DNA of 64,000 bases from Candidatus Dojkabacteria bacterium. GTDB lineage: Bacteria > Patescibacteriota > Dojkabacteria > SC72. The notes beneath the pieces were generated by a model, which was not told the DNA's origin, did not search any database, and saw only the letters and a list, made by a program, of their open reading frames with translations. Position 1 is the stretch's first letter, and the number at the start of each line of letters is the position of its first letter. The translations under genes were made by a program, and so were the position numbers. The stretch is taken from contig JAXGOY010000004.1 in assembly GCA_040767225.1 (NCBI GenBank), positions 6,180 to 70,179 on the forward strand, in the 5' to 3' direction. Below are positions 37,631 to 45,469 of the stretch, piece after piece.

Positions 37631-38158
37631 ATGTCTCCTCGGCTTTTAAAAGATAGAGGAGAGTTTGTATTTAAATTGTTATTTAGTATGCCTATGGAAA
37701 CTAAAAGAAGAAAAAATACAAACAAAGAATTAGCTACAACATCTTACTCTCCTGTAAGGAATATAATTGATGATTTCTTTACACTTCCTTCTGTATTTGA
37801 TTCATTAGTAAATAGATCAATTATGCCAAGCTACAATACATTAATGGCAGATGTATGGGAGGAAGGAGATAATTACTTTGTAAAAATGGCTATGCCTGGT
37901 ATATCTAAGAAGGATATTACAATTGAGCTGGATGGAGATACAGTAAGAATTAGAGGAGAGAAGAAAGAAGAAGAAAAAGAAGAGGGAAAGAAAAAGTATT
38001 ACTTCAGAAGTCTTGAGAGCCAGTTTGAACAGGTATTTAATCTGCCAACTGTAATTGATGCTGATAAAGCAGAGGCTTCTGTAAAGGATGGTGTTTTACT
38101 TATTAAACTTCCTAAGGCAAAAGAGTATATGCCTAAGAAGGTAGAGATAAAGGAGTAA
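37631..38158 (+). CDS. Small heat-shock protein, Hsp20/alpha-crystallin family
   Basis: ACD core DVWEEGDNYFVKMAMPGISKKDITIELDGDTVRIRGEK...LLIKLPK. Alternative start at the Met at 37688. Confidence 0.85.
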   Translation: MSPRLLKDRGEFVFKLLFSMPMETKRRKNTNKELATTSYSPVRNIIDDFFTLPSVFDSLVNRSIMPSYNTLMADVWEEGDNYFVKMAMPGISKKDITIELDGDTVRIRGEKKEEEKEEGKKKYYFRSLESQFEQVFNLPTVIDADKAEASVKDGVLLIKLPKAKEYMPKKVEIKE

Positions 38159-38165
38159 GTTGTAC

Positions 38166-38197
38166 AGGGAGAGGGCTTAGCTCTCTCCCTTCTATAT
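38166..38197 (+). terminator. Putative intrinsic terminator after hsp20
   Basis: AGGGAGAG-ggcttagct-CTCTCCCT stem-loop followed by a T-rich stretch. Confidence 0.45.
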
Positions 38198-38264
38198 ACT
38201 CTTAAGATTTTACAATGCTCTTTTTTTTGTATACTATATAGTATTAATATCTAAATGCATAAAA

Positions 38265-38762
38265 ATGAGTAAAAATATAAAGAGAATTCTTGGTACTGTT
38301 TCTATCTTTGTTTTATTCTTTTCTTTAGTTTCTGCAGGTAGAATATATGCTCAAACAGAAGAGTTAACAAACGAAGAAGAGTTTAACCTTGATTATGAGT
38401 ATGATCAGCCTGTTTTATATGATTATCAAGATGAGAAAGTAGTAGATACTGGCAGGAGATGTGAATGTAGATATGATAATTTAAGTGGTTCTGTTATTAC
38501 TGTTATTTTCTTTTTGTTCTTTTTTATTTTTGCTATTGTTATAGCTTCTCTTGTATTTAATATTGTTATGATAGTTGATTGTATAAATAGAGATGAGAAG
38601 GATTTTAAGGATAGGACTATATGGCTTGTTGTATTAATAGTAGGTGGTTTTACAGGTTTTGGGTTAATAGTTTCTTTAGTATATTTCTTTGCTGTTAAGA
38701 AGAAATTAGATGAGAAGGGGAAATCAGAGAAAAAAGATGTTGAGAATTCTCAAAAGAGATAA
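38265..38762 (+). CDS. Secreted/membrane protein with PLDc_N-like C-terminal domain
   Basis: Signal peptide, acidic region, then VMIVDCINRDEKDFKDRTIWLVVLIVGGFTGFGLIVSLVYFF (phospholipase-D N-terminal-type TM motif). Paralog at 62062-62637. Confidence 0.6.
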   Translation: MSKNIKRILGTVSIFVLFFSLVSAGRIYAQTEELTNEEEFNLDYEYDQPVLYDYQDEKVVDTGRRCECRYDNLSGSVITVIFFLFFFIFAIVIASLVFNIVMIVDCINRDEKDFKDRTIWLVVLIVGGFTGFGLIVSLVYFFAVKKKLDEKGKSEKKDVENSQKR

Positions 38763-38991
38763 TTTTATTTATTTTTAATTTACACTGAAAATAGTATGAA
38801 GAAGTTAAATAGTTTAAAGTTATATTATTATTAATAATAGCAGTACTTTCTATTGGTATATTTGTAGTAGGAGATACTTTAGCAGAACAGAGTAGTGGTA
38901 CTCCTGATTCTGGGAAAATTCTATATTAAAAGAAACATATGATAATTTAAATGATTTAGGGTATGGTAGTGAGGAGGGTAGTTATGGCGGT

Positions 38992-39639
38992 ATGTGGAAT
39001 AGGATAATATCTTCTGCTAATTGGGTGCCTAATGGTACAGTTTCAGAGGATACTGTAGTATCTGGTTATACCTTTTATGATGAGAGTCGTACAGAGAAGA
39101 CTGGTACCTTAGATTTTCCAAATTATGAGGCACAATCCCTGCAAGCTAAAGACTTTAGGGATCAAAATGGCTCTGATTCTTGGTCTTCTTGGAAAAAGGC
39201 AAATACAAATCCAGAGGTTTGGTACGATAGTAGGACTGGTTTATATTGGAGTGCAAGTCAAAGTTCTCAGACAAATCAGTTTACAATTTCAACATGTGAT
39301 TTCTTTACTACTACATCTAGGGGTGATTATGATGGCTCTGATCCTGATTGTGGTAATGCTATTAACACCTGTGGGACTCTCGTATTAGATGCTGATGGAG
39401 ATGGTACTGCAGATACTTCTTGGTATCTTCCGACCCAGGCAGAATTGATGCAGGCCTATCTAAATGGTATATATCTTGGTACTAGTACTGCATGGGTTAC
39501 AGGGAACAATTTTTGGTCGAGTACTGAGAATCAGGTTAATACTAGTTACGCTTGGTATACAGGTCTGTACCGTGGGTATACGTACCCTACTAATAAGACT
39601 ACTAGTTATTCAGTACGTTGTGTCCTTAGGGATTTATAA
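38992..39639 (+). CDS. DGR target protein, DUF1566 / Lcl-like C-type-lectin fold, variable C-terminus
   Basis: SWYLPTQAELMQAYLNG and C-terminal ...NNFWSSTENQVNTSYAWYTGLYRGYTYPTNKTTSYSVRCVLRDL (Fib_succ_major/DUF1566 ending). A signal peptide (MKKLNS.KVILLLIIAVLSIGIFVVG) is encoded upstream at 38796-38930 in shifted frames. Confidence 0.85.
   Translation: MWNRIISSANWVPNGTVSEDTVVSGYTFYDESRTEKTGTLDFPNYEAQSLQAKDFRDQNGSDSWSSWKKANTNPEVWYDSRTGLYWSASQSSQTNQFTISTCDFFTTTSRGDYDGSDPDCGNAINTCGTLVLDADGDGTADTSWYLPTQAELMQAYLNGIYLGTSTAWVTGNNFWSSTENQVNTSYAWYTGLYRGYTYPTNKTTSYSVRCVLRDL
39506..39627 (+). repeat. DGR variable repeat (VR)
   Basis: Aligns base for base with 39906-40027. It differs at 15 positions where TR has A, at codon positions 1/2 of TR AAY codons, plus one T/C mismatch near the 3' end (39621). 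Confidence 0.85.
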
Positions 39640-39644
39640 TATGA

Positions 39645-39673
39645 ATGGATACTGGCGTAAGTCCAGTAGCCAT
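39645..39673 (+). promoter_or_regulatory. Hairpin immediately downstream of VR (DGR homing structure candidate)
   Basis: ATGGATACTGG-cgtaagt-CCAGTAGCCAT (10/11 bp stem) starting 6 nt after the target stop. Confidence 0.4.
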
Positions 39674-39905
39674 ACCAAATTATTTTTAATTTAAAATTTG
39701 AGCTTGCAATCTGTACAGGAATATGAAAGTATGTATCCATGCAAGATCTTACACTCTCAACCTCGGCATAGGCAATGGCTTGTAAGGGAGGCATAAATAT
39801 ATAATCCTACCTGTTATACCCAAGTGGTATAGAGATACAAAAGATCTTTTACACTAAATATGTCTAGTATCAGGTCTTTGGTGGAGTTAAAAAATTAGCA
39901 GGTTT

Positions 39906-40027
39906 ACAATTTTTGGTCGAGTACTGAGAATCAGAATAATAATAGTAACGCTTGGTATACAAATCTGAACAATGGAAATACGAACAATAATAATAAGACT
40001 ACTAGTTATTCAGTACGTTGCGTCCTT
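39906..40027 (+). repeat. DGR template repeat (TR)
   Basis: A-rich at variable positions (aat aat aat agt aac ... aac aat gga aat acg aac aat aat aat). Ends directly at the avd start codon. Confidence 0.85.
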
Positions 40028-40041
40028 AGGGAGTATATAAT

Positions 40042-40398
40042 ATGCCTCAAGCAGATTTAGACAAACCAATATATCTAGCTTTATACAAACTCATTCTTTA
40101 TCTTTATACATGTATTAGAAATTTTCCTAAAGAGTACAAATACACTCTTGGTCAAGACATACTTTCTCTTGCTTGGAAAACCTTAGATTGGGTAATACTC
40201 GCTAATACGGTAGAGAATAGAGAAAAGAAGAAATATATTGCAAAAGCAGTTTCAACCTTTAATAGTTTAAAATACAGATTTCGAGTTGCTAGTGATACCA
40301 AAATTTTAAGCCACCAGAAATATGCCTATATCATTAAACAGTCCGTTGAAATAGAGAAAATGTTAAAAGGATGGTTTTCTTGGTCTAAAAGATTCTAA
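40042..40398 (+). CDS. avd: Accessory variability determinant (Avd-like four-helix-bundle protein)
   Basis: 118 aa, basic, helical. FPKEYKYTLGQDILSLAW resembles the Avd / 23S-IVS family motif FPKEEKYGLTSQIR. Immediately 3' of TR. Confidence 0.7.
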   Translation: MPQADLDKPIYLALYKLILYLYTCIRNFPKEYKYTLGQDILSLAWKTLDWVILANTVENREKKKYIAKAVSTFNSLKYRFRVASDTKILSHQKYAYIIKQSVEIEKMLKGWFSWSKRF

Positions 40399-41565
40399 AT
40401 TACCCTGTACTTCTATATACTCATTTAATTCCCCAAAATGATTGAAGTAAAGGTCTTGCCTTAGGTTATATGAATTACTCCATTTTAGATGTCCAAATGT
40501 AGAATTTATACTATTACAAATTGTTGTGATTTCTTCTTCAGTTGGAGGTGAGTGTATTTCAACTGCCTCCTCTTTACACATAGATCTATCTATTAGAAAT
40601 CCTTTGTTAAAATAGTGTAGTTTTCTTTTTAGATTATGGACTGTACGGTTTCGAGCTAGTATATAGTTTGGTCTGACTATATAGCCAATAAAATCTATGC
40701 CTTGATATACACTCCCATAGGTGGTCTTTTCTGACTTTATTTTAAGTAACAACTCTTTTTCAAGGAATTCTGTAACAGCTTTTTCAATTTCTTCTAATTC
40801 TTTTATATCTTTTGAGAGAAACAGTAGGTCATCTGCATATCTTAGATAGTATTTAATTTTTAATTCTCTTTTGACAAATTGATCTAACTCGTTTAGGTAT
40901 AAATTAGCAAAAAATTGTGATGTTAAGTTCCCAATTGGTAGTCCTTTATTTTCATCTGTGGTAAAAAGACTCTTGTTGGGAGGGAGCTTCTGTATTAGCT
41001 GTAAATCTCCTTTAGGTATATATTTTGTACAAGGATTATGAAGAATTATCTGCTTTGAGAGTTTTAATAATTCCCTTTTCTGTTCTTGGTCATATGGAAG
41101 TTTGTATATGCTGTCAGATAGGATGTCCAGTAATTTTGATTTGTCTATACTGTAGAAGAAACTACTTATATCTAATTTTAGGTAGTAAGAATTAGATTTT
41201 TTATTGTTTGTAACTTTATTTAGAAAGTATTGCAATCGTTTGACTCCACATATGACTCCATGCTCTTTTCTACAGGCAAATGAGTCGTAGATAAAGGTTT
41301 TATCGATTGGGGGTTCGATATAGCTAATTAAGAGATGATGTACAACTCTATCTATGAAGTTAGCAGCAAAGATTTCTCTAGTGGAGGGGTATGTTATGAT
41401 AAAGCATATGGAGTTACCAATCGTATAGGAATTATTCTTAAGTTCTTTTTGTAAACTTACCAAGTTATATTCAAGATGATTTTCAAATAGAAGTTGGTAT
41501 GTGCTATTCCTTTTTCCTTTTCTACATGAGTAGTATGCAGAGATAATGGATTCTAAATCAAACAT
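40363..41565 (-). CDS. DGR reverse transcriptase
   Basis: RT motifs: LKLDISSFFYSID (RT3), GLPIGNLTSQFFANLYLNELD (RT4 with DGR-type SQ in place of group II QG), YLRYADDLLFL (RT5), GIDFIGY (RT7). 400 aa, no maturase or endonuclease domain. Convergent with avd, overlapping it by 36 nt. Confidence 0.85.
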   Translation of the reverse strand: MFDLESIISAYYSCRKGKRNSTYQLLFENHLEYNLVSLQKELKNNSYTIGNSICFIITYPSTREIFAANFIDRVVHHLLISYIEPPIDKTFIYDSFACRKEHGVICGVKRLQYFLNKVTNNKKSNSYYLKLDISSFFYSIDKSKLLDILSDSIYKLPYDQEQKRELLKLSKQIILHNPCTKYIPKGDLQLIQKLPPNKSLFTTDENKGLPIGNLTSQFFANLYLNELDQFVKRELKIKYYLRYADDLLFLSKDIKELEEIEKAVTEFLEKELLLKIKSEKTTYGSVYQGIDFIGYIVRPNYILARNRTVHNLKRKLHYFNKGFLIDRSMCKEEAVEIHSPPTEEEITTICNSINSTFGHLKWSNSYNLRQDLYFNHFGELNEYIEVQGNLESFRPRKPSF

Positions 41566-41949
41566 TGTTTTGTGTATTATTCATTATGCTGTTAATCGTG
41601 GGGTATTTGGTCGAGCCTTCAATCCCACAGAGTTGGTATTTACACTATACCATTAACAACTATTGTTCCTTAGGTTAAATGAGTCTCCTTTCTTATTACA
41701 AATTTATGATGAATTGTACATTGCTACTAGATAAATTAATGTTAAAATGAATAATAGCTATGTAATATATTTCCAATATTGATATTATGTTTCTCTAAAT
41801 ATCTCTTTTAAGGCACCATCTACATACATCTTTAATTCTTTCATATCCTACTTTGTGTTCCTCAAAGGTCGGGAGTCCTTTTTCTTTTACCCATCTTTTA
41901 TTCTCATCCAATATAAAGCAAACGATAAGAATTAATTGAAATTTGATAT

Positions 41950-42310
41950 ACTAGAGATTTGAAAATAGTAGAAAACAAAATTAGCATTCAAGAATTAAAA
42001 GAGATGGCGTCTAAGATGTTTGGTAGTCTTGTTTTAGATAGAGAAGAGAGAATAGAGTTTGACTCAATGATTAATCTAAGACCATAGAACTTTTTGATTT
42101 ATCTAAAGAATCAAAATTAACATCTTCACAGTATAGAGAATTAACTAGAAGTAGGGAGATATGGGGAGATTATTTTAAATATGATAATCAATATTCATCC
42201 ACAGCTCAGTCTATGAATAACTACTTTATGTATTTAACTATTGCTTACAAAAACAGTGGGAAGGAATCCCCTATTATTTGTTTAAGAAATTCATTTGTAT
42301 GTATTTCCTA
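41950..42310 (+). pseudogene. Decayed copy of the two-gene cassette found intact at 48089-48745
   Basis: Translates to KIVENKISIQELKEMASKMFGSLVLD...REERIEFDSMINLRP* ... ELFDLSKESKLTSSQYRELTRSREIWGDYFKYDNQYSST, collinear with 48089-48430 and 48437-48745 but with internal deletions and stops. Confidence 0.6.
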
Positions 42311-42379
42311 AATACAGTTTATACACCTACACGCAAGTTGTTGAATTTAGAACGAATTTTATGATATCCTTTTATAACT

Positions 42380-45300
42380 ATGAAGGATACTGTCCATATA
42401 AGGATACCAATATTAATATTGTTTGTTGTTGTAATAGGCATTACATTTGTATTATTAATAACTAATGTATTTGCTTTAAATAATACATCTGTTTTAGGAA
42501 GTGCTACTGTAATAAATACACAGAATAAAATATTCTTTACGTCTCAAACATATGGTGCAAATGTAGTAATATCAGATCCTGATCCTGAGAATAATAATAA
42601 AAGAACAATATCTGGATATGCATGGTCTCAAGATATAGGATGGATAAAATTTACACAGGGAGAAACAGATGGAGTGTTTGTTGAGTATGATACAGGAAAA
42701 GTTTCAGGTTCTGCATATGTAATAAATACTGGAAATAGAATAGAGTTTAGCTCAAATAATGCTAATGTGGTAGTTAATACAGAAACAGGAAAGTTTACAG
42801 GATATGCATGGTCTAAGGATATAGGGTGGATAGATTTCGGAGTTAATAATGTGTATGTAAAAGATAGTACTCCTCCGAATAATCCTACAGAGGCAAAGGC
42901 ATATACAGACGGGAGTAGAGAAAAAGAGATACCAGTATCTGCTGATAAATTTTTTAGTTTTACATCAATACATTTGTATTGGGATAAGCCTCAAGACCCT
43001 AGTGGAGAATCTCATGGATATAGTGCAAGTGGGATATCTGGCTATTATGTATATTGGGGAGTAAGCAGTACTGCAATACCATCTTCTTCTGGCAGTTTTA
43101 TTACTGACAACTTTGTTGATGTAGATATTCCTTCTAGTGGAACATACTACTTAAATGTTCAGGCAGTTGATAATCAAGGGAATATGTATACCAACACTGA
43201 TCAGGACTATACAATATTAGAGTATAATGCTGACTTGGTTTCTCCTACTAATGTTAAGTATATAACTACACCTGGGGGTAATTTCGGAAATATTGATGAT
43301 ATGTTTTTTAGCTGGCCAAGCTCTGCTGGTGTTACAAGTGAAGATGAAAATGGTATATTAGGTTGGCAGTATAGTTTAAATGGGGTTAATAACTGGACAG
43401 GACCAGTACACGATGATTGGCTTAATCTAGATTATATCCCATACAAAGATTCTACATATATTCATTATTTTTCTAATGAGAAGGACGGGGAGAAAATAGT
43501 AGTAGGTAATAATATTATATATTTTAGAACAATAGATAAAGCAGGAAATACAAGCGGATATATTAGTGGAGGTATATCCTATGGAGGTCTTGCTCCTATA
43601 TTTGAAGAGGATGCACAGGTAATTATTACTCCTTCTGAGAATACATCGAATGAGTTTGCACTATCATGGTCTCCTGCTATTCCATTTGAAGGGAGAGTGA
43701 TTGCTTCTTACTATTATATGGTAAACTCTCCTCCTCCTGCTACATATGAGACATTAATAAGTAACTCTTCATTGTATATTCCAGTGCAGGGTACTTCTGT
43801 GTCAAAGAGAATGCTTCCTGGTGCAATTAAAGGTGAAAATATAGTATATGTTATTGCTGTTGATAATGAAAATGGATACTCTCCTAGTAATTATATTCAA
43901 GCGAAGTTTACATTAAATAGTACTTTACCTGACCCTGTAACTGATTTGAGTATAGCGGACACATCAATTAAAGATGCTAAACTGTGGAGAGCAAGTATTA
44001 CATGGAATGAGCCTGTGTATAAAGGGGATGGGAAGCTTACATATATTGTTCAGAGAAGTTTTAATGGAGTTGATTGGACAACTGTTGGAAGCACCACAGG
44101 TATTACATATTCAGATATTGTTCCTTCAAGCAGACTTTATTACTATCGGGTAGGTGTAATGGATGGAACAGATCAGAGTAAAGAGAAGCCTACTTTTTCA
44201 ATATCTCTTTCTGCAATGATAGAGGGAAGATATACACAGCCTGCGAAATTAGTTTCTGAGGTTGAAATTGTAAACTTAGGAACAAGAAAAGCAACAATAG
44301 TATGGGTAACTGAAAGAAATAGTGATACAAAAGTTGCATATGGTTTAACAAGCGGGGAGTATTTTGAAGAGGAAGCATACAACTCTAAACAGGTAACTGA
44401 GCATGAAATTACATTAAATAATCTTCAGCCAGAAACAACATACTACTTTAAGGCTAAGTGGAGTGATTCTGATGGAAATACTGGAGAAAGTCAGGAGATA
44501 TCTCTTAGAACTGCAGATTCTCCTCAGGTATACTCCAGTAAGGTTGATATGGTTGGTTTAAACTATGCAGTTATTTCTTTTGAGGTATTTGGTGCTACAA
44601 AAGCTTCCGTTATATATGGAAGGTCTTTTGCATATACTGCGCAAAAAGAGATAAATACATCACCTACAAGAAGCAAGTACTCTGTTGTTTTAGATGGTTT
44701 AGATGATGGGGTGCAATATAGTTATAAGATAAGGCTGACAGATGCTGATGGATACATATATGATTCTATTGAAAACAATACATTTACTACACCCCCTAAA
44801 CCTAAGATATCAAATGTAAGAGTACAGGAGATACGAGATGTTGCAAGTCCTACCGTAGTATTTAGCTGGGATACTAATACACATACCAATTCTATTGTAA
44901 GATACAGAGAAGATGTTGAAGGATCAAGGGAAATTGATAAAGTGGATATGAAGATGGTAAAGGGAGAACATAAAATGGAGATATCTGGTTTAGTACCAAC
45001 AACCAACTATATAGCATATGTTGAAGGAGTTGATGATTATGGGAATAAGGCTGTATCTGAAACAGTAAGATTTACTACTCAAACTGATACTAGACCTCCA
45101 AAGATATTTAATGTTAAAGTTGAACAGGATCTTTTGGGTAGGTCAATTCAAACAGATAGAAGCAGGAGTGCTCAATTGATAGTAAGCTGGGAAACTGATG
45201 AGCCTGCTACAAGCAAGGTAAACTTTGGTGAGGGCGGTGCAGGTGTATATACATCTAGTTCTAGAATGGATCAGGAACAAAGAACAGATCATTTGGTTAT

Positions 45301-45469
45301 AGTCTCAGGCTTAACTCCATCTAAGGTGTATAGTTTAGAAATTGAATCTGGTGATGATTCAGGCAATATCAGTAAATATGGTCCTCTTGTTTCAATTACT
45401 CAAAAATCATCTAATACTGTTTTAGAAACAATATTGAACTCTATCTCTAATATATTTAACATATTCTAA
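42380..45469 (+). CDS. Very large secreted/anchored protein with multiple fibronectin-III-like domains
   Basis: 1029 aa; N-terminal TM/signal IPILILFVVVIGITFVLLI; several FN3-like units (YYYRVGVMDGTDQS, TTYYFKAKWSDSDGNTGES). Confidence 0.75.
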   Translation: MKDTVHIRIPILILFVVVIGITFVLLITNVFALNNTSVLGSATVINTQNKIFFTSQTYGANVVISDPDPENNNKRTISGYAWSQDIGWIKFTQGETDGVFVEYDTGKVSGSAYVINTGNRIEFSSNNANVVVNTETGKFTGYAWSKDIGWIDFGVNNVYVKDSTPPNNPTEAKAYTDGSREKEIPVSADKFFSFTSIHLYWDKPQDPSGESHGYSASGISGYYVYWGVSSTAIPSSSGSFITDNFVDVDIPSSGTYYLNVQAVDNQGNMYTNTDQDYTILEYNADLVSPTNVKYITTPGGNFGNIDDMFFSWPSSAGVTSEDENGILGWQYSLNGVNNWTGPVHDDWLNLDYIPYKDSTYIHYFSNEKDGEKIVVGNNIIYFRTIDKAGNTSGYISGGISYGGLAPIFEEDAQVIITPSENTSNEFALSWSPAIPFEGRVIASYYYMVNSPPPATYETLISNSSLYIPVQGTSVSKRMLPGAIKGENIVYVIAVDNENGYSPSNYIQAKFTLNSTLPDPVTDLSIADTSIKDAKLWRASITWNEPVYKGDGKLTYIVQRSFNGVDWTTVGSTTGITYSDIVPSSRLYYYRVGVMDGTDQSKEKPTFSISLSAMIEGRYTQPAKLVSEVEIVNLGTRKATIVWVTERNSDTKVAYGLTSGEYFEEEAYNSKQVTEHEITLNNLQPETTYYFKAKWSDSDGNTGESQEISLRTADSPQVYSSKVDMVGLNYAVISFEVFGATKASVIYGRSFAYTAQKEINTSPTRSKYSVVLDGLDDGVQYSYKIRLTDADGYIYDSIENNTFTTPPKPKISNVRVQEIRDVASPTVVFSWDTNTHTNSIVRYREDVEGSREIDKVDMKMVKGEHKMEISGLVPTTNYIAYVEGVDDYGNKAVSETVRFTTQTDTRPPKIFNVKVEQDLLGRSIQTDRSRSAQLIVSWETDEPATSKVNFGEGGAGVYTSSSRMDQEQRTDHLVIVSGLTPSKVYSLEIESGDDSGNISKYGPLVSITQKSSNTVLETILNSISNIFNIF

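Follow-up and report, generated by a model that had tools for sequence, protein, structure and literature searches.

The window, a stretch of 64,000 nt from a contig of Candidatus Dojkabacteria, contains a chromosomal DGR of the CPR type, whose parts lie within a segment of less than 3 kb:

38798-39639, plus strand: target gene of the Lcl_C/DUF1566 type with an N-terminal membrane helix (longest intact ORF 38992-39639)
39506-39632, plus strand: VR, a 127-nt direct repeat with TR, followed by an IMH-like homology tail to 39643
39645-39673, plus strand: hairpin directly 3' of VR, ~11 bp with a GTAA loop
39704-39732, plus strand: promoter-like motif, TTGCAA (39704-39709), a 17-nt spacer, TG (39724-39725) and AAGTAT (39727-39732)
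39739-39903, plus strand: structured RNA 5' of TR (the leader), 165 nt, with covariation
39906-40032, plus strand: TR, the repeat partner of VR
40029-40053, plus strand: 3' strand of a long-range duplex, from the MFE fold, the RNAalifold consensus and cognate duplex energies
40042-40398, plus strand: avd, encoding 118 aa
40363-41565, minus strand: DGR RT, 400 aa

The assignment to the DGRs rests on an adenine-specific TR/VR pair, an adjacent RT, an Avd and a VR at the C-terminal end of the target. TR and VR mismatch at 16 of 127 nt; 15 of these fall on TR adenines and the remaining one is a C/T difference. Past a 1-nt indel the homology resumes and continues up to tataatATG (39633-39643 and 40034-40044), which an earlier note on this DNA had already recognized after both repeats. 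VR ends 7 nt ahead of the stop codon of the target, whose ORF 38992-39639 matches Pfam Lcl_C/DUF1566 with E = 1.6e-11. The gap between VR and TR measures ~262-266 nt, and avd, which scores over the curated cut-off of Pfam bAvd (E = 4.8e-17), starts 10 nt 3' of TR. The RT matches RVT_1 (E = 6e-20), a general rather than DGR-specific profile, and its translation contains IGNLTSQ and YADD, in keeping with the [I/L]GxxxSQ and YxDD motifs of DGR-type RTs. It converges on avd so that the 3' ends of the two genes overlap by 36 nt (40363-40398). Target/VR, gap, TR and avd on the plus strand and an overlapping RT on the minus strand is what the earlier note had described, and all these parts were found where it had placed them. 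Neither a second co-directional RT or TR nor a truncated RT ORF, both raised there as ways in which the layout might mislead, was encountered: a second RT, avd, TR or VR is absent from the 64-kb window, and the RT is full length when aligned with 17 relatives. Just past the RT, at 41700-42380, lie broken small ORFs.

The same note had considered this layout unusual, a view that does not survive comparison with related loci. At least 13 Dojkabacteria-type (CPR) contigs share the layout, with RT identities of 57-86%, and the distance from TR to the avd start is 10 nt in at least 13 relatives as well. The 36-nt avd/RT overlap recurs in ten of the related loci (L085-L093 and L096) and measures 39 nt in another (L095). 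More broadly, 62 of 85 related loci scanned contain an A-biased TR/VR pair, and TR lies on the strand opposite the RT in ~22 of 58 related DGRs, or about one third. Such strand-split arrangements have also been published: in Shewanella, Vibrio and Photobacterium, 'inverted' DGRs have TR and RT on separate strands (Schillinger 2012, PMC3521204), and strand-split architectures have been catalogued that include type B3, TR-(avd)-RT, which dominates the CPR set (Wu 2018, PMC5758913). As in these strand-split systems, the RT of the window is separated from TR, VR and target, which share the opposite strand; its order, target-TR-avd convergent with RT, differs from B3 as described in the main text of PMC5758913. 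CPR DGRs are known for non-canonical gene orders. Since RT and TR occupy opposite strands, the TR RNA must be produced separately from the RT mRNA, on a transcript of its own.

DGRs with this layout are active in relatives, where mutagenic retrohoming is ongoing. In one pair of near-identical contigs (L085 versus L086) all 21 differences lie in VR, and all 21 at TR-A sites. In a second such pair (L087 versus L088) there are 26 differences over 6.2 kb, 18 of them in VR, and all 18 of those coincide with TR-A sites. To see whether VR varies within the window's own population, we fetched contigs with a 99% identical RT; every one of them stops at the TR/VR repeat, a break that is expected for a variable population.

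The hairpin at 39645-39673, which the earlier note had correctly placed directly after VR, has a folding energy of -8.5 kcal/mol when folded as DNA (z = -4.9). The closest relatives retain it with compensatory changes, among them one (L094) whose VR is placed elsewhere, and it is missing from more distant relatives; there is no equivalent after TR. What had been read as a relic ORF on the VR side does exist as an ORF of 18 codons (ATG at 39641, translating as MNGYWRKSSSHTKLFLI*). Its protein is not conserved, however, and it overlaps the hairpin, where covariation is seen at the nucleotide level.

The 265 bp between VR and TR had been taken for a plain spacer. Instead, the gap holds a conserved structured RNA of 165 nt, the leader, which ends 2 nt before TR and consists of the following parts:

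39747-39787, plus strand: P1 hairpin
39788-39808, plus strand: single-stranded, primer-like strand
39809-39816 paired with 39896-39903, plus strand: P2
39817-39829, plus strand: P3 hairpin
39836-39883, plus strand: P4 long stem-loop
39884-39894, plus strand: A-rich single strand

RNAalifold places 44 pairs in the leader, 21 of them with compensatory changes. Across the alignment 96.9% of cells are paired, compared with 30-43% in slid controls, and none of 500 shuffles reaches the observed values; G-U pairs fix the strand. An outer helix of P1 (AUGC/GCAU) that had appeared in the first consensus was rejected, as it is without covariation and the region around the avd start is a better pairing partner for its 3' strand. 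We also dropped a MAFFT re-alignment of the leader 3' domain in which distant members were misaligned. A covariance model of the leader (R1) has a single match in the window, at 184 bits. Like the RNA motifs RT-1 to RT-19 (Weinberg 2017, PMC5737381), the leader is a structured RNA in the neighbourhood of a bacterial RT gene; a search of 38000-43000 on both strands gave no match at E <= 1 to these motifs or to any other family of Rfam 15.

Covariance-model matches fall on the TR strand. Of the 37 loci where TR was mapped, 33 have a match that ends at TR or at most 16 nt 5' of it, and the other four have one that ends 35-51 nt away; four further matches are partial and lie 35-53 nt upstream. The leader is found 5' of TR in six gene orders of the clade, including the canonical avd-TR-RT order, where it sits downstream of avd, as well as orders that place antisense avd or the RT end after TR. 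P2 closes just before TR in every case. More distant architectures were scanned with R1 with filters off, and their matches are individually weak (E 0.002 to 7) and accepted mainly because of their position. Gaps across the clade have a median of 194 nt and a minimum of 97 nt on the 5' side of TR (57 loci), and a median of 27.5 nt on the 3' side (58 loci). The leader is tied to TR and not to any gene. Upstream of it, the TTGcnA, TGn and A..T positions of the promoter-like motif are kept in an alignment of 14 related loci. A generic sigma-70 scan did not flag 39704-39732 and a generic terminator scan returned nothing between avd and RT; we nonetheless infer from the conserved positions that the motif probably functions as a promoter, with a start at ~39739.

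The leader also reaches across TR. Its strand 39788-39808 pairs with GGGA at 40029-40032, UAUAU at 40035-40039 and UAUGCCUC at 40041-40048, while GCA at 40051-40053 pairs with 39740-39742, so that the 3' strand of the duplex spans the Shine-Dalgarno-like GGGAG of avd, its start codon and codons 2-4. A single-sequence MFE fold and an RNAalifold consensus built on 13 sequences each recovered the duplex independently. If the two strands had evolved together, cognate strands should pair better than strands drawn from different lineages. This is indeed what we observe, with duplex energies across 13 lineages of -23.2 kcal/mol for cognate versus -13.0 kcal/mol for non-cognate combinations and none of 200,000 permutations as low; a test with a shorter strand likewise supported co-evolution. 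TR is thus flanked by two duplexes, one on its 3' end and one closing just 5' of it, both present, both covarying, and both drawing their partner strands from upstream of TR.

Taken together, we think it probable, though with real room for doubt, that this is a CPR-type chromosomal DGR whose 5' leader acts as scaffold RNA on a TR-avd transcript, with the RT supplied in trans. Three other explanations deserve consideration. The earlier note had suggested that, in the manner of BPP-1, scaffold and priming RNA lie 3' of TR and that the avd coding region doubles as this spacer RNA. The close spacing of TR and avd, which the window shares with at least 13 relatives, fits this idea, and part of it stands, inasmuch as the avd 5' UTR and the first three to four codons (40029-40053) form the conserved duplex strand. 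The coding region as such shows no structural conservation: RNAalifold finds only six trivial pairs over the first 200 nt of avd, no structure is conserved beyond ~+12, and synonymous sites vary freely. Where a BPP-1-type organisation would have a structured RNA, in the 200 nt 3' of TR, nothing is conserved as structure past the first ~25 nt. Moreover, what follows TR in leader-bearing sister architectures is antisense avd (L002, L009 and L010), the RT start (canonical loci) or the RT end, and the strongly covarying RNA sits 5' of TR instead. We therefore regard a spacer role for the avd coding region as very improbable. Another scenario would make the leader a cis-regulatory 5' UTR that sequesters the avd Shine-Dalgarno sequence and AUG without taking part directly in reverse transcription. 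The duplex does cover GGGAG and AUG, and one can plausibly picture a switch between use as mRNA and use as template, even alongside the scaffold model. If regulation of avd were the only function, however, we would not expect an element that tracks TR rather than avd, lies downstream of avd in canonical loci, and has a duplex 3' strand that is antisense to the avd 3' end in L009, L002 and L010 and ahead of the RT gene in L035. The duplex co-evolves in all of these loci, and P2 retains its place next to TR. On balance, a purely regulatory leader seems unlikely.

It might also be argued that the window copy is a decaying, non-functional DGR whose layout has no functional meaning. Compared with intact homologues, the target gene carries two frameshifts, near 38820 and 38915, both before residue 40: the intact homologues (279-284 aa) align in two different frames of the window and the start codon is in a third. 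The broken small ORFs past the RT point in the same direction. The frameshifts may mean that this copy is inactive; equally, both adjoin short homopolymer runs, and the assembly may hold indel errors. Against decay, nothing is broken in RT, avd, TR, leader or VR, mismatches between VR and TR are A-specific, close relatives with this layout are actively diversifying, and the contigs with near-identical RT break where a variable population would make them break. Decay is accordingly an explanation to which we give little credence, and we return to a leader that serves as scaffold for the copying of TR.

How would such a scaffold compare with the one in BPP-1? In this Bordetella phage DGR the order is mtd-avd-TR-Sp-brt (PMC6182149; bioRxiv 10.1101/2023.10.23.563531). 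A structured spacer of roughly 140 nt with the priming site comes after TR in the BPP-1 type of organisation, in which a 2'-OH of the flanking RNA serves for cis-priming and the stem-loops of that RNA bind RT and Avd. The window shares with it RT and Avd, the A-specific TR/VR pair, an IMH-like tail and a hairpin after VR. In both systems TR is bracketed by two adjacent RNA duplexes, at its 3' end and just 5' of it; in BPP-1 the template:primer duplex adjoins the cPRT Stop duplex (bioRxiv 10.1101/2023.10.23.563531). The parts of the leader also follow the order of parts reported for Sp in the same study: hairpin, primer-type strand, stop-duplex strand, short hairpin, single strand and long interrupted hairpin. 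The likeness is one of order and topology only, as leader and Sp have no sequence similarity. The two systems differ in that the scaffold RNA is 5' of TR here and 3' in BPP-1, which amounts to a swap of two modules; that avd follows TR rather than preceding it; that the RT is on the opposite strand, convergent and overlapping avd; and that the window holds a chromosomal CPR element with an Lcl_C/DUF1566 target, not a phage element with Mtd. Based on the matching order of parts we propose that the leader may be the functional equivalent of Sp, placed 5' instead of 3' of TR. One published result counts against a 5' leader: from single-sequence folds of 40 nt upstream and 100 nt downstream, Handa et al. 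(bioRxiv 10.1101/2023.10.23.563531) describe putative stem-loops for Avd binding on the downstream side of TR for many DGRs, those of CPR among them. A conserved RNA 5' of TR is described in the available parts of neither PMC3521204 nor PMC5758913.

Imagine, then, a promoter near 39704-39732 from which one plus-strand transcript is predicted to start at ~39739, running through the 165-nt structured leader, TR, the avd ribosome-binding site and avd. TR would be looped out between two helices that each use leader strands, with P2 closing 2 nt 5' of TR and a duplex of ~18-20 bp joining leader 39788-39808 to the TR 3' end and the avd Shine-Dalgarno sequence and start (40029-40048). The RT, made from the convergent minus-strand gene, would act in trans together with Avd on the leader-TR RNA, with protein possibly bound by the leader and priming possibly provided by it. 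TR would be copied with adenine-specific errors, and the cDNA would replace VR at the 3' end of the Lcl_C-type target. If TR requires nothing past ~25 nt on its 3' side, it could be followed by any gene, whichever way that gene points. To a broader reading we give about even odds: a large clade of CPR DGRs may use a module-swapped RNA, spacer then TR, with primer strand, stop duplex and protein-binding hairpins all upstream and with cDNA cis-primed from a nucleotide 5' of TR.

To our knowledge, no natural system other than DGRs hypermutates proteins in a targeted way in prokaryotes, and DGRs are under development as directed-evolution tools. We know of no mechanistic insight into DGRs that does not come from one phage element, in which the essential RNA is downstream of the template. 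A covariation-supported RNA upstream of the template, present in six gene orders of a CPR clade, suggests that the same problem has been solved in a second way, one that can be tested. With ~315 nt the leader-TR cassette is compact and self-contained, and RT and Avd could be supplied in trans. For CPR DGRs, conclusions may fail when they are based on folds of downstream sequence only; if the model is right, current searches for DGR RNAs, in which the 100 nt past TR are folded, are aimed at the wrong side of TR in this clade. An upstream leader would also explain the plasticity of gene order among CPR DGRs, as TR could then abut any gene on either strand.

The layout set out in the earlier note is confirmed: target, VR, TR and avd of the DGR are on the plus strand and a convergent RT is on the minus strand.

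38992-39639, plus strand: target ORF, Lcl_C/DUF1566 match
39506-39632, plus strand: VR, 127-nt direct repeat with TR
39906-40032, plus strand: TR, 127-nt direct repeat with VR
40042-40398, plus strand: avd, bAvd match
40363-41565, minus strand: RT, RVT_1 match

VR and TR differ at 16 of 127 nt, 15 of these at TR adenines, and past a 1-nt indel their homology extends to the tataatATG that had been noted after both copies. The RT carries the motifs IGNLTSQ and YADD and is not truncated, aligning end to end with 17 relatives; its closest relatives belong to the CPR lineage Candidatus Dojkabacteria (WS6). The 3' ends of avd and RT overlap by 36 nt. No second RT, avd, TR or VR was found anywhere in the 64-kb window (G+C 32%), and RT, avd, TR, VR and the leader RNA described below are all intact in this copy.

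The layout had been thought unusual. To place it, we gathered 103 related loci (L001-L103) from genomes and metagenomes and mapped RT, avd and TR/VR pairs with A bias in 85 of them. The window order, RT> <avd <TR <target, in which ~10 nt separate the end of TR from the avd ATG, is also found in L001 (a partial contig), L003, L005 and L006, and in L085-L093 and L095-L097 (RT identity 57-86%); the overlap of exactly 36 nt recurs in ten loci of this order. L094 (RT identity 63%) keeps TR-avd, with the target after avd and the RT divergent.

Gene orders, with RT pointing right, in the 58 relatives that gave both a TR and an avd (the canonical count includes 7 loci initially typed avd>RT>TR>, with an RT ORF extended too far upstream)
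avd>TR>RT> (canonical): 27 loci
RT> <TR <avd: 13 loci
TR>avd>RT>: 6 loci
RT> <avd <TR (window type): 4 loci
RT>avd> <TR: 3 loci
RT>TR>avd>: 2 loci
three further orders, one locus apiece: 3 loci

By these counts, TR is on the strand opposite RT in roughly a third of the clade. Separate strands for TR and RT were reported earlier by Schillinger 2012 (PMC3521204) and by Wu 2018 (PMC5758913). The layout is, moreover, active in nature, as VR changes between close pairs of loci show: all 21 differences between L085 and L086 fall in VR and at TR-A sites, and of the 26 differences between L087 and L088 over 6.2 kb, 18 fall in the 128-nt VR, all at TR-A sites. The window layout is thus no oddity, but variation of a kind that is conserved, active and already in the catalogues.

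Does the avd mRNA act as the DGR RNA spacer, as the earlier note proposed? Among 13 relatives, the alignment from -60 to +200 nt of the avd ATG shows ordinary third-codon variation, and RNAalifold on the avd start region returns six trivial pairs only, with no covariation. The avd coding region thus aligned shows no sign of conserved structure, and the proposal holds only for approximately the first 25 nt after TR, which enter a long-range duplex. The ~170 nt directly 5' of TR, on the other hand, are strongly conserved throughout the set of 14 loci, including L094, despite its differing upstream context, and L097, where insertions of 40-60 nt sit in loops. RNAalifold predicts 44 pairs in this leader, 21 of them with compensatory changes. 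Paired cells amount to 96.9%, compared to 30-43% in controls whose partners are shifted by 1-3 columns, pairs with two-sided changes number 21 against 2-5 in these controls, and none of 500 shuffles matches the observed values. Frequent G-U pairs indicate an RNA on the TR strand. The leader matches no Rfam family.

39739-39903, plus strand: whole leader
39747-39787, plus strand: P1 hairpin of the leader structure
39788-39808, plus strand: conserved strand of the leader
39809-39816 paired with 39896-39903, plus strand: P2, ending 2 nt short of TR
39817-39829, plus strand: P3 hairpin of the leader structure
39836-39883, plus strand: P4, long stem-loop of the leader structure
39884-39894, plus strand: A-rich single strand of the leader

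Just upstream, a conserved TTGcnA / 17 nt / TGn-A..T motif (39704-39732), which a generic promoter scan did not flag, looks promoter-like and would place the transcription start at ~39739.

The complement of the conserved leader strand (GAGGCAUA-AA-UAUAUA-A-UCCU) lies at 40029-40048 (GGGA-G-UAUAUA-A-UAUGCCUC), in the last four nt of TR, the SD-like GGGAG of avd, its AUG and five nt more (all of codon 2 plus one base of codon 3). This duplex is recovered by the single-sequence MFE fold of 39739-40050 and again, with 39740-39742 also paired to 40051-40053, by the RNAalifold consensus of 13 full-length RNAs. Its two strands co-evolve: mean duplex energy across 13 lineages is -23.2 kcal/mol for cognate and -13.0 kcal/mol for non-cognate combinations, a cognate value reached by none of 200,000 permutations, and in each of the six most divergent lineages the cognate partner ranks first by a wide margin. 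Using a shorter duplex strand gives the same outcome. The duplex is kept in L009, L002 and L010, where the 3' flank of TR is antisense avd, and in L035, where that flank precedes the RT gene. It is thus a feature of TR and not of avd.

A covariance model of the leader, trained on 13 Dojkabacteria sequences, has one match in the window. Elsewhere it matches loci of the orders RT>avd> <TR (L009, at 73 bits, L002, L010/L046, L008, L007), TR>avd>RT> (L016, L020) and canonical avd>TR>RT> (L035, L056, L058, L027). With filters off, further matches appear in L071, L019, L015, L017, L041, L061, L038, L030, L025, L048, L064, L045, L043, L029, L084 and L051. These are individually weak (E-values up to ~7), and we accepted them for their position, on the TR strand and ending at TR or at most 45 nt 5' of it; we estimate the chance expectation for such placements at <0.2 per search. 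Partial matches lie 35-53 nt upstream of TR. P2 covariation is clear among the aligned matches (for example CCUGUUA/UAGCAGG, UUCCGCCA/UUGGCGGAA, GUCCGUUU/AAGCGGAC). Clade-wide, the noncoding gap on the 5' side of TR spans a median of 194 nt and a minimum of 97 nt (57 loci), and the gap on the 3' side a median of 27.5 nt (58 loci). Judged from sequence, the leader is tied to TR and to no particular gene, and is seen in six of the clade's gene orders.

In BPP-1, the Bordetella phage DGR, these gaps are reversed: just 20 nt upstream of TR are required and a 140-nt Sp, the spacer RNA, comes after TR. By cryo-EM, Sp consists, in order, of an Avd-binding stem-loop, a primer strand paired with the TR 3' end, a cPRT Stop strand pairing with the 11 nt directly 5' of TR in a duplex that adjoins the primer duplex, a short stem-loop with adenosines, a single-stranded Thumb Ring and a long interrupted RT-binding stem-loop (Handa et al., bioRxiv 10.1101/2023.10.23.563531). 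The leader runs in the same order, from P1 through the strand pairing with the TR 3' end, the P2 strand, P3 and a single strand to P4. Its P2 strand, with a partner just 5' of TR, takes the place of the cPRT Stop strand, and P4 is likewise a long interrupted hairpin, followed by the A-rich strand. Note that the likeness is one of topology only, with no sequence similarity, and that the leader block sits before the unit of stop strand, TR and template strand, whereas Sp sits after it. Given the shared order of parts, we propose that the leader may be a spacer equivalent whose place relative to TR is swapped, with a putative role in priming and protein binding. L009, L002, L010 and L008 have a lone unpaired G between the primer-like strand and P2, opposite the G that opens the GGGA of the TR 3' end, which recalls G57 of Sp opposite TR G117; the equivalent base in the window's lineage is U. 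Downstream stem-loops have been inferred for many DGRs, CPR included, by folding individual sequences of 40 nt upstream plus 100 nt downstream (Handa et al., bioRxiv 10.1101/2023.10.23.563531), a design that would miss the leader. We found no description of an upstream DGR scaffold in the searchable literature.

The hairpin that had been noted after VR (39645-39673) is real, well beyond chance (z = -4.9), and is conserved among the closest relatives, where its stem varies in a compensatory way (GGATAC...GTATCC versus GGGTAC...GTACCC, for instance). It is also kept in L094, whose VR follows avd, was not seen in more distant relatives and has no counterpart after TR. It fits a DGR homing hairpin, though it is not G+C-rich. 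The 18-codon ORF described after VR does overlap this hairpin, but its length and sequence vary, so it is not a conserved gene, and the tataatATG common to both repeat ends is best read as an IMH/IMH*-like tail. VR/TR differences at the 3' end are located in the TR segment paired with the leader, paralleling the pairing of Sp with the TR 3' end in BPP-1. Terminator prediction finds nothing between avd and RT; given the conserved 36-nt overlap, one might speculate that convergent transcription couples the two genes.

Intact target homologues have 279-284 aa. In the window, the N-terminal part (start codon, membrane helix and linker; 38798-38992) is spread over three frames: homologue residues 7-40 and 40-280 align in two, and the start codon is in the third. 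Two frameshifts are needed, near 38820 and 38915, each beside short homopolymer runs, which points either to a target pseudogene or to two indel errors in the assembly. In L098-L103 (RT 99% identical to that of the window), all six contigs end no more than a few hundred bases past avd, at the TR/VR repeat, as expected if VR heterogeneity in those populations breaks assembly. In L097 (2371-4883), avd, whose normal frame stops after 10 codons, is covered by a gene call of 289 aa; this relative also has two genes of Lcl_C type, 113 and 363 aa long, and leader loop insertions of ~60 and ~40 nt. L046 combines an avd> <TR <VR unit as in L010 with another RT gene starting ~760 nt past VR, perhaps a tandem of two DGRs.

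The interval from the RT start to the large gene that follows (41566-42380) has only short broken ORFs, such as 41959-42087 (42 aa) and a minus-strand fragment at ~41760-41935, and a GTGGGG...CCCAC hairpin near 41598-41630; it may consist of gene remnants, or of promoter and leader of RT. Next to RT, here and in two relatives (L095:1-2348, L098:1-2186), is a 1029-aa fn3 / purple-acid-phosphatase-N protein (42380-45469) with internal GYAWSxDIGWIxF repeats at 42614-42651 and 42800-42837, which argues that the DGR lies in conserved chromosomal synteny and not in an obvious mobile element. An IS200/IS605-type Y1 transposase gene directly upstream of RT in L093 (1229-1717) hints at a route by which the cassette may be moved or rearranged.

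Overall, the 5' leader is a more interesting result than the gene layout: a covariation-supported RNA that lies 5' of TR in six of the clade's gene orders and resembles the BPP-1 spacer moved to the other side of TR.
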